DNA from: Escherichia phage slur02
DNA: 64,000 bases
Sequence record: NC_028927.1
Reading direction: 5' to 3' (one strand)
Part shown: positions 31,273 to 35,322 of the stretch, piece by piece
Layout: each line of letters begins with the position of its first letter
Numbering within the stretch: the stretch's first letter is position 1
Notes under the pieces: generated by a model
Told to the model about the DNA's origin: nothing
Databases searched by the model: none
The model's input: only the letters and a program-made list of their open reading frames with translations
Position numbers and translations under genes: made by a program

Positions 31273-31485
31273 TCATTTTTGTCCTGTATTTACTTTATGC
31301 CGATGCACGGCCTTAACTTTATCAAGGTATTTTTCAAAATTTCGCAATCTAGTATAGTCTGCCGGAGATTGGTTGAGTGATACTTCTCGACGCAAAGCTG
31401 AAATGATATTTCCAACTTCCCTACGAATTTCATCTAATTGAAGCACAGTAAGATTGCGAAGTTGCTTTTCAGTTAATTGTAGCAT
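31273..31485 (-). CDS. hypothetical protein (rI.1 position)
   Basis: 70-aa ORF. Confidence 0.45.
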
Positions 31486-31527
31486 ATATACCCCTTTAGT
31501 TAGATAAACCTATTTATAACTTTTGCA

Positions 31528-32109
31528 CTAACCGAGCTTTTTAGTTAATTCATTCCAATGTTTTCTACACAAAGAAACATAAATTTCATCACCAATACAG
31601 ATTTGATTACCTTCTTTAACTGGTGTTCCATCTTCCATTAATCGAGCTGTCATAATCGCTTTTTTACCACAATGACAAACTGCTTTTAATTCAATAAGTT
31701 TATCTGCAATCGCTAAAAGTTCTTTAGAACCTTCAAATAATTTTCCAGCGAAATCAGTCCTTAATCCATAAGCCATAACAGGAACATTATATGTATCAAC
31801 AATTCGGCTCAATTGATGCACTTGTTCAGTTTTTAAAAACTGAGCTTCATCTACAAATACGCAATGAATATCTTTTTGTGCTTCAGCCCATTTATAGAAC
31901 TCGAAAATATCCATATCATCTGTAATAATATTCGCTTCCTGTTTAATTCCAATGCGAGAAACAACTTCACAGACAGAATCGCGAGTATCAATAGCAGGCT
32001 TAAGAACTAATACACTCATTCCACGTTCTTTATAATTATGTGCAGCAGTCAAAAGAGAAGCAGATTTTCCAGCATTCATTGCTGCATAAGTAAAAATTAA
32101 ACTCGCCAT
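31528..32109 (-). CDS. tk: thymidine kinase
   Basis: 193 aa; P-loop NAGKSAS; C-terminal Zn-binding Cys; matches T4 Tk as recalled. Confidence 0.93.
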   Translation of the reverse strand: MASLIFTYAAMNAGKSASLLTAAHNYKERGMSVLVLKPAIDTRDSVCEVVSRIGIKQEANIITDDMDIFEFYKWAEAQKDIHCVFVDEAQFLKTEQVHQLSRIVDTYNVPVMAYGLRTDFAGKLFEGSKELLAIADKLIELKAVCHCGKKAIMTARLMEDGTPVKEGNQICIGDEIYVSLCRKHWNELTKKLG

Positions 32110-32118
32110 ATCACCTTC

Positions 32119-32304
32119 TTAAAGCGTATTCACATAAGCTATTAATTCATTTTCTTTCTTATCAAACCGATCAGCAAATTCTTCCTGCTGTTCGGGAGAT
32201 AGCGGGCCGTATTCATCATAAAAGGTGTTTGCTTCTGTATGCTCATCTAGAAGTTCATGGATAAGCTCAAACAATTTATCTTTTTGTTCTTTACTCAGAC
32301 TCAT
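32119..32304 (-). CDS. hypothetical acidic protein (tk.1 position)
   Basis: 61-aa ORF. Confidence 0.45.
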   Translation of the reverse strand: MSLSKEQKDKLFELIHELLDEHTEANTFYDEYGPLSPEQQEEFADRFDKKENELIAYVNTL

Positions 32305-32470
32305 ATATTAATTTCCAGGAGTTTTAAGATAATTCGCTTTTGCTTAAATATTTCCATCGTTAAATGATCAATATCTTTTTGACCAATTCCAATAGCAAAA
32401 CCCTTATTTACGGCAAGTTCAATTAAATTATCAATATTGCGTAAAACTTCATAACGTAACTCAAAATTAT

Positions 32471-32683
32471 TCATTTTGGTTCACCTTCTTTAACGAAATC
32501 AGGATAAGGATAAAATCCTGAATAAAATCCTTCACCTTTATGATTGATGCATCCTTTATTAGAACAATAGCACCAATAATCGAAATCACAAGCCATTTCA
32601 TCGTTGCATAAAGCAAAAACAACCGGCCACTTACACTTTTCACAGTGGGCATTTTTAAGAATACTAGTTTGGCTCATAACCAT
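32471..32683 (-). CDS. Cys-rich small protein (tk.2 position)
   Basis: ORF 32471-32698, start likely internal Met; about 10 Cys. Confidence 0.45.
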   Translation of the reverse strand: MVMSQTSILKNAHCEKCKWPVVFALCNDEMACDFDYWCYCSNKGCINHKGEGFYSGFYPYPDFVKEGEPK

Positions 32684-32886
32684 GTAACCTTTAAGCAATA
32701 TTCTTCTACATGTTGTTTACGACCTTTCTTATCAATAAAGGTATATTCAACGAATGTTCCAATGTAGTCTTTATCTACATCATGTGGACTATTAATTGGA
32801 CATTTAGTACGGCAAATGCGTTCCCATTGACGAATAATTACTGCTTTGTTTTTAGGATCAAACGGATGTGGGTAATGCACTTTCAT
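32674..32886 (-). CDS. hypothetical protein (tk.3 position)
   Basis: 70-aa ORF. Confidence 0.45.
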   Translation of the reverse strand: MKVHYPHPFDPKNKAVIIRQWERICRTKCPINSPHDVDKDYIGTFVEYTFIDKKGRKQHVEEYCLKVTWL

Positions 32887-33337
32887 AATCCACCACTATT
32901 AAATCAATATCAGGAGTAAACATGTCGATTAATTTAGAAACCTTATCCCAATCGCCGCCAGCAATACCACAACCTATGCGTGGAATGTAAATTACCGGTT
33001 TAAACAAAAGGGTTTCTGCCTGTAGATTTAATTCTATCATGCAGTTTACTAAAGCACCATAATCAAGATTAGGACCTGGTTCGTATTGCGTATACAGGTT
33101 ATAGCATATACCAAAACCATTAGGTTTATGTTTAAAAACAATAGACATATCGCCTAATTTATCACGAGAACCGTACTCAGTAGTGGTTTTATCTATTTCT
33201 AAAATTTTGGGATAGGCTCTTGCTAATTGACCAGCTACACCTGAACCCATAGTATGAAAACAATTGCACCCGTGCGCAATAATATTACCTTGAAGAAATA
33301 GGGCGACAATATCGCCCTTGATATATTTTACAATCAT
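32858..33337 (-). CDS. macro-domain protein (ADP-ribose binding/processing)
   Basis: 159 aa; GDIVA...IIAHGCNCFHTMGSGVAGQLA resembles macro-domain Gly-rich loops. Confidence 0.55.
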   Translation of the reverse strand: MIVKYIKGDIVALFLQGNIIAHGCNCFHTMGSGVAGQLARAYPKILEIDKTTTEYGSRDKLGDMSIVFKHKPNGFGICYNLYTQYEPGPNLDYGALVNCMIELNLQAETLLFKPVIYIPRIGCGIAGGDWDKVSKLIDMFTPDIDLIVVDYESALPTSV

Positions 33338-33675
33338 CTAGTACTCAATCCTCGATTATAAGAATCTACCAAACGGTCAACCATTGAATGACAAGCGGCT
33401 TTATCTTTCTCCTCCGCAACTGAACATTCTAAGGTATTCCACTTTTTAGCATATCGTTTTAACAATGTATCATTTTTGTATCTGCTTGATTTATCTCTTT
33501 CTCCGTCTTTATATGCATATATTAATTTCTGCGCAAATTCAGCTTGGCATGCTTTATTTTTCCCGCAATAATCCGCTGCAGTACGGTTTACATACTCTCT
33601 AATTTCAGTATATGATGTATCTGCTAACGCAGAAAATGAAATTAATCCTATACATAAAACCAAAATTTTAGTCAT
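33334..33675 (-). CDS. secreted protein with signal peptide (vs position)
   Basis: 113 aa; N-terminal MTKILVLCIGLISFSALA. Confidence 0.45.
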   Translation of the reverse strand: MTKILVLCIGLISFSALADTSYTEIREYVNRTAADYCGKNKACQAEFAQKLIYAYKDGERDKSSRYKNDTLLKRYAKKWNTLECSVAEEKDKAACHSMVDRLVDSYNRGLSTR

Positions 33676-34213
33676 TTACTATTTCCAAAAGTTTATTATT
33701 TTTAAGGTAATTAGCCTTTTCTAGGACTTCAGAAGCATATTTAGAACCTGCTTTAACATTCCATCCCGAATTATAAGAGGATATTGCTTTTCTTATATCG
33801 CCCTTATGTATATTTAACCAATAAGAAAGTTCAATGTACGCCCAGGAAGCTGAATTGGACCGTTTATTCAACATTCTTTTTATTTCAGCATCGGTCATAT
33901 TATAACCAAGTTCCTTAACTCTTGCTCGCATAGTAGGCAAATAATTTTGGAACATTCCGTAGGCGTGATGCTTTGCTTTAGATTTTAAATTAACTCCGCC
34001 AGAGCTTTCTTGCCATAAAATAGCAGCCATTATATGACCCAATCCGCTCTTGTGGATATTTTTGTGTGTTTTATATTTTCCATCCTTAGAAAATTGTTCC
34101 CCGAATTGATACGCGTAACGCATGTTATCGAGTTGGACATTACTGAAAGTATGCTCGGAGCTATGTGCCATCATTGAAATGGCCAATAGACCAGCGAGTA
34201 GTGCTTTTCTCAT
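33668..34213 (-). CDS. soluble lytic transglycosylase-like periplasmic protein (vs.1 position)
   Basis: 181 aa; signal peptide; SLT motifs QESSGG and AYGMFQ. Confidence 0.55.
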   Translation of the reverse strand: MRKALLAGLLAISMMAHSSEHTFSNVQLDNMRYAYQFGEQFSKDGKYKTHKNIHKSGLGHIMAAILWQESSGGVNLKSKAKHHAYGMFQNYLPTMRARVKELGYNMTDAEIKRMLNKRSNSASWAYIELSYWLNIHKGDIRKAISSYNSGWNVKAGSKYASEVLEKANYLKNNKLLEIVND

Positions 34214-34220
34214 GCTTACC

Positions 34221-34682
34221 TCATTGAGTTTTAATTACTGCTTTAGAAGCCTTTCCTGGTAAACGACGACTGTTGATAATTGCCATCCTGCATTGAAGTG
34301 ACGGGTCTTTGAACTTCTCATTAGGCTTACAAACCGTAAATCCAAGCCAAAGATTTCCATCTGTGATTTCTAAACGTCCAGGACGATATTCAACCCCATC
34401 AATAAAATCCTCGTCAATGTCAGGACGCGGAGGCATACTCAGGAATTCATTAACTTCTAAAACATGGTCTTTTATTTTATGGAATAATTCAAAAACATAT
34501 GTCTCATCAATCTCCCGTTGAATTGCACGATCAAGAAGATGTTGAGAATATTTTAGATGAAACGATGAGACTCCTGCTGCTTTTGATGCCTCACGAATCT
34601 CATTGTTAATTTGACGAAACTCCGACTCAAAGTGACGACGAAGCTTATTTCGACGGATAAAAACTTCTGTATTGATAGTCAT
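34221..34682 (-). CDS. regB: endoribonuclease RegB
   Basis: 153 aa; T4 regB size/position; early promoter upstream. Confidence 0.85.
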   Translation of the reverse strand: MTINTEVFIRRNKLRRHFESEFRQINNEIREASKAAGVSSFHLKYSQHLLDRAIQREIDETYVFELFHKIKDHVLEVNEFLSMPPRPDIDEDFIDGVEYRPGRLEITDGNLWLGFTVCKPNEKFKDPSLQCRMAIINSRRLPGKASKAVIKTQ

Positions 34683-34707
34683 GTTGTTCTCCTCTTAACT
34701 GATAGAA

Positions 34708-34742
34708 AAATTATACCACAGTCAAGAGGAAAAGTAAACAGT
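34708..34742 (-). promoter_or_regulatory. T4-type early promoter (regB)
   Basis: GTTTAC (34734-34739), spacer, TGTGGTATAATT. Confidence 0.6.
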
Positions 34743-35020
34743 TATTCTTTAAATCTAATCAATTTATTCATAGACTTTGAAACTTCTGCACGAACCTCAT
34801 GTAAGTTTTTAAGCTGTTCAAGACGCTGCTCATAGTAAGCAATTTCATCTTCTTCGAGACAGTCCTGTGAATCTTCTTTAAGATAGCGTGCATAGTCCTG
34901 GAAAGCTTTACGGACTACTTCCTGGAAGTCATCAAGACTTTGAATTTTCTTAGGAGCGGCAGATACACGACGAGGGGCAGTATAATACTCATAACCAAAC
35001 CCTGCACTTAATTGAGCCAT
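34742..35020 (-). CDS. hypothetical protein (vs.3 position)
   Basis: ORF 34742-35062, start likely internal Met. Confidence 0.45.
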
Positions 35021-35322
35021 TAGTATTTTTCCTCTGGTTGGAACACAGCACGGCAAGCCCACATACTTGCTTCTTTGAGTTTCGTTTTAGCAATAGTTAA
35101 CTGATCGAGGCTTTCGGCGTAATTCTTCGCGAGTTCATCATCTTCACAGCTATCAAATGCTTCCCAGAATTCATCGTATAAAGCGTCAAAGATAAGTCCT
35201 AAACGAACTTCAGCGTCTTTGATAGCATTCACTTTACCGATTTTCTCTTCAGTATGCGGCTTATAACCTTTAATGTCTTCAATCATATTTGACTTCCTCA
35301 CCAGTACATAAATCGTATTCAA
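35020..35322 (-). CDS. hypothetical protein (vs.4 position; candidate Acb2-like nucleotide sponge)
   Basis: 100-aa ORF at the position of T4 vs.4; sequence identity to Acb2 not verified. Confidence 0.4.

Follow-up and report, generated by a model that had tools for sequence, protein, structure and literature searches.

Tk.4 of Escherichia phage slur02: a divergent allele of the T4 AdfM macro domain with a putative Gln-type active site

The gene between vs and tk.3 of Escherichia phage slur02 (NC_028927.1; the window, i.e., the whole stretch of DNA analysed, comprises 64,000 nucleotides) encodes a macro domain protein and is the Tequatrovirus gene tk.4 (adfM), present as an allele that is unlike that of T4; its orthology is shown by synteny. 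The most probable reading (probability about 0.78) is that slur02 Tk.4 would be a stand-alone TARG1/ALC1-like macrodomain, acting as a DNA ADP-ribosylglycohydrolase in the manner of an orphan antitoxin, with an active site like that of SCO6735. Neither the tk.4/adfM family nor its macro fold nor its anti-DarTG2 role is new, since T4 tk.4 is the adfM of a recent preprint (10.1101/2025.11.20.689424) and the exact ORF is annotated in GenBank. The published findings on AdfM thus agree in essence with what had been proposed from the letters of the DNA (a macro domain, an action against ADP-ribosylating toxins, an infection experiment with DarTG hosts). The modest additions made here are the Gln-type active site, the observation that the name 'AdfM' spans two macrodomain subfamilies, and the discrete replacement of the tk.4 allele.

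The coordinates of the features at the locus are summarized in Table 1. The ORF, together with the Gly-rich string quoted for it, was present as described in the original prediction. The minus strand carries the whole closely packed run of regB, vs.1, vs, tk.4, tk.3 and the ORFs that follow as far as tk, and 'in the tk operon', the placement that had been given to the gene, is therefore fair as a description. A scan for sigma-70-type promoters over positions 31400-35200 yielded 12 sites, as compared to 16.3 expected by chance; because the sites were no more frequent than chance, the scan neither favours nor disfavours an operon. The overlap of the vs stop codon with the tk.4 start codon, a layout that is annotated in T4 as well, makes translational coupling of the two genes possible.

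Table 1. Features of tk.4 and its surroundings in slur02 (positions refer to the window)
Feature	Coordinates	Strand	Basis
tk.4 / adfM CDS, 159 aa, one macro domain	32858..33337	(-)	ATG-started ORF; Pfam, AF2, Foldseek and T4 homology
vs (valyl-tRNA synthetase modifier), upstream syntenic anchor	33334..33675	(-)	97% identical to T4 Vs
tk.3 (DUF7202), downstream syntenic anchor	32674..32886	(-)	96% identical to T4 Tk.3
ATGA, overlap of vs stop codon and tk.4 start codon	33334..33337	(-)	coordinates and sequence
Overlap of tk.4 3' end with tk.3 start, 29 nt	32858..32886	(-)	ORF coordinates
RegB homologue ORF	34221-34682	(-), same as tk.4	
Thymidine kinase (tk) ORF	31528-32109	(-), same as tk.4	
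Residues 19-39 IIAHGCNCFHTMGSGVAGQLA, strand 2 and ADP-ribose-binding loop 1 (His22, Asn25, G-x-G)	33221..33283	(-)	family alignment
Residues 119-130 PRIGCGIAGGDW, second loop (PB-loop of the SCO6735 paper)	32948..32983	(-)	alignments
Gln84 codon CAA, catalytic-Lys position of DarG/TARG1	33086..33088	(-)	read from sequence and alignment

Over a tested span of 2.3 kb around tk.4, the DNA showed no difference from Escherichia phage slur04 (a Tequatrovirus; 100% identity), and about 400 further T4-like phages matched it at 95-99%. The exact ORF is labelled 'Macro domain protein' in GenBank and 'phosphatase' in RefSeq. The T4 record places tk.4, annotated as 'phosphatase; contains A1pp phosphatase motif', between vs and tk.3; the identity with this long-annotated T4 gene had been missed in the original prediction. 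The tk.4 slot, with its vs and tk.3 flanks and its position upstream of tk, matches the T4 gene order; in Gelderlandvirus the macro gene is likewise found upstream of tdk, and in Vibrio phages a homologue adjoins a ribose-phosphate pyrophosphokinase gene. The ORF is not a chance ORF, because it matched the Pfam Macro family and PHROG 335 (E 1.6e-71 for the latter), had 794 homologues in a database search (E<=1e-3), and was matched by tblastn in 2,851 records of a phage collection of 50,697.

The product of the ORF is confirmed to be a real macro domain. The Pfam Macro model (PF01661) matched it with 33.1 bits (E 6e-8; gathering score 22), and the match spans positions 2-117 of the 118 in the profile. 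When the sequence itself was searched against the PDB, the matches included BT1257 (E 1e-10), yeast Poa1p (1e-9), SCO6735 (1e-7), the DarG macrodomain of M. tuberculosis (2e-5) and TARG1 (9e-3). With a profile built from 82 members of the Tk.4 family this set of proteins rose to E values between 8e-19 and 1e-10; BT1257 was the best PDB match by profile as well as by sequence, and by profile score the family was nearer to BT1257, TARG1, SCO6735 and Poa1p than to DarG. The AlphaFold2 (AF2) model of the ORF, computed with the 82-sequence family alignment as input, had a pLDDT of 93.7 and a pTM of 0.89; residues 157-159 were below 50, the extra C-terminal residues being disordered in the model. 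Regarding the comparison of the model with the PDB by Foldseek, the top matches were TARG1, BT1257, Poa1p, the DarG macrodomains of T. aquaticus and M. tuberculosis, and SCO6735 (probability 1.00, TM 0.7-0.8), and viral Mac1-type macrodomains were placed lower than these. Model and structure search show the three-layer alpha/beta/alpha macro fold, and the best structural matches being TARG1, BT1257, Poa1p, DarG and SCO6735, the protein is therefore assigned to the TARG1/ALC1-like macrodomain class. The proposal of a macro domain, for which a missing profile match or missing binding residues in a structural model had been named as grounds for rejection, withstands all of these tests: the Pfam hit is above the curated cutoff, the confident model matches solved macrodomains, and the residues of the ligand loops are conserved.

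For the comparison of individual residues, the PDB chains of TARG1, BT1257, Poa1p, SCO6735 and the DarG macrodomains MtDarG and TaqDarG, together with PhiKZ gp104 taken from its genome record, were aligned with the ORF and 81 further family members, and the family counts given below are out of 83 members. The alignment reproduced the published residue numbers of TARG1 (K84/D125), DarG (N22/K29/K80/G119), SCO6735 (H24/N27/K34/Q85/K89/G128) and Poa1p (H23/F152). The Gly-rich segment that had been likened to an ADP-ribose loop is loop 1, in which H22, N25 and G33 were invariant and G31 nearly so (82-sequence alignment). The Gly-rich loop 2 (PRIGCGIAGG, residues 119-128) contains G122 and G124, which were invariant in the family alignment, and the loops align with those of TARG1, DarG and SCO6735.

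The position of the catalytic lysine (DarG K80, TARG1 K84, PhiKZ gp104 K78) is taken by Gln84, as it is by Q85 in SCO6735 and Q82 in BT1257, and all 83 members of the Tk.4 family carry Gln there. Equally invariant (83/83 each) were His22 (opposite SCO6735 H24 and Poa1p H23), Asn25 (opposite DarG N22 and SCO6735 N27) and Gly124 (opposite DarG G119 and SCO6735 G128). Ala126, opposite TARG1 D125 and Poa1p F152, is Ala in 76 and Gly in 7 sequences; the Lys84/Asp125 catalytic dyad of TARG1 is accordingly absent at the aligned positions (Gln84, Ala126). At Ser32, opposite DarG K29 and SCO6735 K34, all 83 sequences have Ala, Ser or Gly, and Gly88, opposite SCO6735 K89, is Gly in 81 of 83.

SCO6735 likewise carries Gln in place of the catalytic lysine, and it nevertheless cleaves thymidine-linked ADP-ribose off DNA efficiently and protects against DarT; its Q85A and Q85E variants are dead, a water-initiated mechanism has been proposed by its authors, and K34 and K89 were mutated in the same study (PMC9411070). 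Gln84 is invariant and a Gln-type protein of this kind is active, so the active site of T4-type AdfM is predicted, from its aligned residues, to be SCO6735-like (Gln-type) in composition and not DarG-like. The Gln and the His, Asn and Gly equivalents are common to slur02 Tk.4, SCO6735 (PDB 5e3b) and BT1257 (2fg1/2afc), the latter two being Gln-type ALC1-like proteins with about 25-26% identity to the phage protein (Foldseek). The equivalents of SCO6735 K34 and K89 are absent from the phage family, SCO6735 is basic and the phage protein acidic, and SCO6735 is a cellular, DNA-damage-inducible protein whereas Tk.4 is the product of a phage gene.

Several features are at odds with a glycohydrolase reading, i.e., the family is devoid of the essential Lys of DarG (PMC5179494) and of lysines equivalent to DarG K29/SCO6735 K34 and to SCO6735 K89, the slur02 protein is acidic, unlike SCO6735, and the profile is closer to BT1257, TARG1, SCO6735 and Poa1p than to DarG. 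The predicted pI was 5.25 for the ORF product, 9.5 for SCO6735 and 5.05 for PhiKZ AdfM. A low pI as an argument against DNA binding was dropped, as PhiKZ AdfM has been proven to de-ADP-ribosylate DNA and is just as acidic.

The DarG macrodomain (M. tuberculosis 5m3i, T. aquaticus 5m31) has the same fold as Tk.4 (TM about 0.72-0.77) and presumably the same substrate, and the equivalents of DarG Asn22 and Gly119 are kept in Tk.4. DarG Lys80 is replaced by Gln, however, and DarG Lys29 by Ser or Ala; in DarG, K80A abolished activity and antitoxin function, and K29E was markedly inhibitory (PMC5179494). Unlike DarG, slur02 Tk.4 has neither a C-terminal DarT-binding domain nor an adjacent darT, its neighbours being vs and tk.3. 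Tk.4 was also considered as a DarG antitoxin and rejected: NCBIfam NF048014 reached 27.6 bits where its cutoff is 250, and both this model and the PADLOC DarG model (E 4.5e-7) matched weakly and over the macro domain only. Annotated DarG was not found on plasmids by tblastn, where the matches were generic macro-domain and SLOG-family proteins.

The database labels ('phosphatase', 'A1pp phosphatase motif') suggest another function, in which the protein would be a Poa1p-like small-molecule enzyme, i.e., an ADP-ribose-1''-phosphate phosphatase or a processor of soluble derivatives, serving metabolic clean-up or signal destruction and not DNA repair. Yeast Poa1p was among the top matches by sequence and by structure, the H-x-C-N-C motif is common to the ORF and Poa1p, and the neighbourhood of a ribose-phosphate pyrophosphokinase gene in Vibrio phages would be in line with such a role. 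The residues of Poa1p that were mutated in deposited structures are nevertheless kept only in part: His23 corresponds to H22, but Ser30 to Thr29 (Thr in 53/83, variable across the family) and Phe152 to Ala126. Moreover, Poa1p carries Ser where Tk.4 has Gln84. Many macrodomains have a weak Appr-1''-p phosphatase activity in vitro that is not their biological role. The 2022 survey that reported macro domains in 41% of myoviruses holds that those of phages act mostly on low-molecular-weight ADP-ribose derivatives (Iyer et al. 2022; PMC9503650), whereas the sole recorded phenotype of the T4 orthologue is a specific sensitisation to DarTG2, which modifies DNA (10.1101/2025.11.20.689424). A Poa1p-like function is considered improbable. 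Nothing spoke for degradation of NAD-derived or Thoeris signals, the second role that had been suggested for the gene; the host ThsA sensor was the sole Thoeris macrodomain in the literature found.

The suggestion of a counter to ADP-ribosylating toxins (DarTG) is supported by the genetics of the T4 orthologue. With a T4 transposon library on a DarTG2-expressing host, tk.4 was the single significant hit, and a clean deletion of tk.4 made T4 sensitive to DarTG2 (HIDEN-SEQ preprint, Nov 2025; bioRxiv 10.1101/2025.11.20.689424). The gene was renamed adfM (anti-DarT factor Macrodomain) in that work, in which removal of ADP-ribose from DNA by T4 AdfM is an inference worded as 'seems likely'; the same screen with DarTG1 is reported to have recovered adfN and not tk.4 (10.1101/2025.11.20.689424). 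T4 gp30.3 (AdfN, a NADAR protein) is an orphan antitoxin against DarTG1 (PMC11825919), and T4 without adfN is still resistant to DarTG2 (PMC11825919; 10.1101/2025.11.20.689424). AdfN thus represents the same strategy as that proposed for Tk.4, a toxin-less, phage-borne, antitoxin-like ADP-ribosylglycohydrolase (PMC11825919), but has the unrelated NADAR fold, and its substrate is the guanine-linked ADP-ribose that DarT1 makes, whereas DarT2 makes the thymine-linked form.

The macrodomain gp104 of PhiKZ, also named AdfM, strips the ADP-ribose made by DarT2 from TNTC DNA in vitro (Cell Rep 2026; PMC13309987). This chimallivirus protein is stand-alone like slur02 Tk.4, of similar size, counters DarTG2 and bears the same gene name. 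It belongs to a separate subfamily, however, which is of the DarG type (FPTK, Lys78), and it could hardly be aligned with slur02 Tk.4 (27% identity over 33 residues, E 0.001). PhiKZ gp104 is imported into the phage nucleus, whereas T4-like phages are devoid of such a nucleus.

We infer a glycohydrolase activity for the proteins of the Tk.4 family. The role in DarTG2 resistance is known for the T4 allele alone and is transferred to the slur02 allele by homology; slur02 Tk.4, only 57% identical to the T4 protein, would share this function. In the proposed mechanism, DarT2 freed in a DarTG2-carrying host would attack single-stranded phage DNA and ADP-ribosylate its thymidines. Tk.4 would grip the ADP-ribose via its two Gly-rich loops and hydrolyse the thymine-ribose bond, whereupon replication could go on. 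Gln84, aided by His22, Asn25 and Gly124 (all invariant), would stand in for the catalytic Lys; catalysis would probably proceed through an activated water, with the Gln positioning the substrate and no lysine taking part.

Protection could alternatively be achieved chiefly by binding, either by direct inhibition of DarT2 or by shielding or sequestration of ADP-ribosylated sites, with hydrolysis being secondary or absent. SCO6735 also inhibits DarT through direct interaction, and its catalytically dead Q85A variant is a strong inhibitor of DarT in vitro, beyond DarG K80A or TARG1 K84A (PMC9411070). The missing catalytic Lys of the Tk.4 family would agree with such a function, as would a swapped cassette that diverges mainly outside the N-terminal ligand loop, a pattern in keeping with a surface that evolves jointly with the protein it binds. 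On the other hand, all 83 family sequences keep the residues used by SCO6735 for hydrolysis (His, Asn, Gln, Gly), a constancy for which pure binding has no obvious need, the isolated DarG macrodomain K80A did not inhibit DarT (PMC5179494), and both phage anti-DarT enzymes assayed, T4 AdfN and PhiKZ AdfM, de-ADP-ribosylate DNA (PMC11825919, PMC13309987). Protection mainly by binding is regarded as quite unlikely; binding of DarT2 as a layer additional to glycohydrolysis is plausible by the precedent of SCO6735.

It is also conceivable that the DarTG2 phenotype is a side activity and that Tk.4 removes ADP-ribose from protein or RNA, either tuning the marks set by phage Alt, ModA and ModB or countering defences that rely on RNA-targeting ADP-ribosyltransferases. 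T4-like phages encode three ADP-ribosyltransferases. SCO6735 and TARG1 de-modify proteins, too (PMC9411070), and the AdfN paper speculates on the detoxification of further DNA- or RNA-ADP-ribosylating systems (PMC11825919). Yet in the literature found tk.4 has no link to protein or RNA substrates, and its sole defence-specific phenotype there is the one with DarTG2. The mRNA ADP-ribosylating defence CmdTAC is robust against T-even phages, which would be unexpected if Tk.4 removed that mark; in the CmdTAC paper, macrodomains appear in the reference list only and no link to Tk.4 is made (PMC11618068). A primary role on protein or RNA is therefore judged very remote, and DNA de-ADP-ribosylation is retained as the preferred reading.

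Regarding the comparison with the T4 allele, slur02 and T4 Tk.4 agree in the vs/tk.3 slot, in length class, in the single macro domain and in full-length homology (57% identity over 155/155 aa, E 1e-69), and H22, N25, Q84, G124 and W130 are identical in the two proteins. The remaining 43% of residues differ despite near-identical flanks: the flanking proteins Tk, Tk.3, Vs, Vs.1, RegB, rI, rI.1 and rI.-1 of slur02 were 96-100% identical to those of T4. In a sliding DNA comparison with T4, identity was 98-100% in the 3' part of vs, 33-65% in tk.4 and 97-100% in tk.3; the fall occurs inside tk.4, after roughly its first 40 nt, and a 13-nt gap relative to T4 is found just ahead of the tk.3 start. 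The slur02 protein is 4 residues longer than that of T4, and the overlap with tk.3 is 29 nt instead of 4 nt. By segment, the stretch with ligand loop 1 (residues 1-40) was the most conserved (34/40 identical), and residues 61-80 (6/20) and 141-155 (4/15) the most diverged; loop 2 reads GCGIAGGDW in slur02 and GAGIGKGNW in T4.

Within the phage collection, 311 records carried the slur02-type allele (>=90% identity) and 224 the T4-type allele at >=90%, and a further type, 80-90% identical to T4, was found in 159 records; T4-like phages have at least three tk.4 allele groups. By these comparisons tk.4 is a discrete swapped cassette among near-identical phages, and a cassette-like polymorphism of this kind would fit a gene under pressure from host defence. 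A more far-reaching view would regard the two 'AdfM' macrodomain subfamilies (Lys-type in chimalliviruses, Gln-type in T4-like phages) as independently recruited and the tk.4 swaps as an arms race, with alleles perhaps differing in specificity, either for DarT2 variants by contacting the toxin directly or for other ADP-ribosylated substrates; this view is advanced with considerable doubt.

T4-type AdfM is devoid of the catalytic lysine of DarG and TARG1, and biochemistry on this family should therefore target Gln84, His22 and Asn25 and not a lysine. For therapeutic T4-like phages, the exchangeable tk.4 cassette has a bearing on forecasts of their resistance to particular DarTG2 hosts.

A hairpin was detected by the terminator scan, on both strands, near the 5' end of tk.4 (adfM in T4), the macro-domain ORF, and lies within the first 40 nt of the gene, about 20 nt downstream of the start codon (sequence with U-rich tail: AGGGCGAUAUUGUCGCCCU AUUUCUUC). 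The predicted folding energy was -14.3 kcal/mol, with a z-score of -2.05, and the DNA of T4 and of the window is 98% identical at this site. In one GenBank record, OL631480, the features annotated under the tk.4 match include a 'terminator'. Between vs and tk.4, the hairpin could serve in attenuation or in RNA processing. The features are listed in the table.

Features of the tk.4 region and its surroundings (window coordinates unless a locus is named; L001, slur04 locus; L002, T4 locus)
Feature	Position	Strand	Remarks
tk.4 hairpin	33300-33318	minus	GC-rich, 8-bp stem, 3-nt loop, U-rich tail; terminator scan and RNA fold
vs.1	33668-34213	minus	181 aa; annotated 'hypothetical' in T4 and slur04
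Small ORF	within 32119-32698		61 aa; 54% identity to T4 Tk.2
Small ORF	within 32119-32698		57 aa
Small ORF	within 32119-32698		75 aa; PF23895 'phage zinc binding domain' protein
slur04 gp072	L001 28-573		suspect RefSeq name
slur04 gp077	L001 1301-1489		suspect RefSeq name
T4 mobD.4	L002 2353-2535		suspect RefSeq name
ORF	L001 5743-6021		suspect RefSeq name

The segment directly downstream of tk.3 is another mosaic cassette, in which the window carries three small ORFs, whereas T4 has tk.1 and tk.2 only; below about position 32680 the DNA identity to T4 falls steeply, to 18-38%. The vs.1 product has a hydrophobic, signal-peptide-like N-terminus and matched the SLT lytic transglycosylase domain at 25.4 bits, above the Pfam cutoff of 21.3. 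Several RefSeq product names in the slur04 and T4 loci look like artefacts: small T4 'mobD.x' ORFs, whose names derive from the MobD homing endonuclease, bear the label 'molybdopterin-guanine dinucleotide biosynthesis protein MobD', and the vs.3 homologue is labeled 'Endoribonuclease RegB'.

Regarding homologues in other genomes, the search of plasmids for DarG sequences placed the homologous macro region inside CDSs annotated 'SLOG family protein' on plasmids of Bacillus thuringiensis, B. velezensis and Cytobacillus (plasmid hits H76-H83, H87, H89), which suggests macro-SLOG fusions on Bacillus plasmids. In the Vibrio phages Rocket24, Kronos, Ceto and VPMCC14 (tblastn phage hits H39, H44, H46 and H55) a gene with the annotation 'ribose-phosphate pyrophosphokinase' adjoins the macro-domain homologue or shares sequence with it, an arrangement which hints that in this lineage the homologue may be linked to ADP-ribose or NAD salvage rather than to DNA repair.
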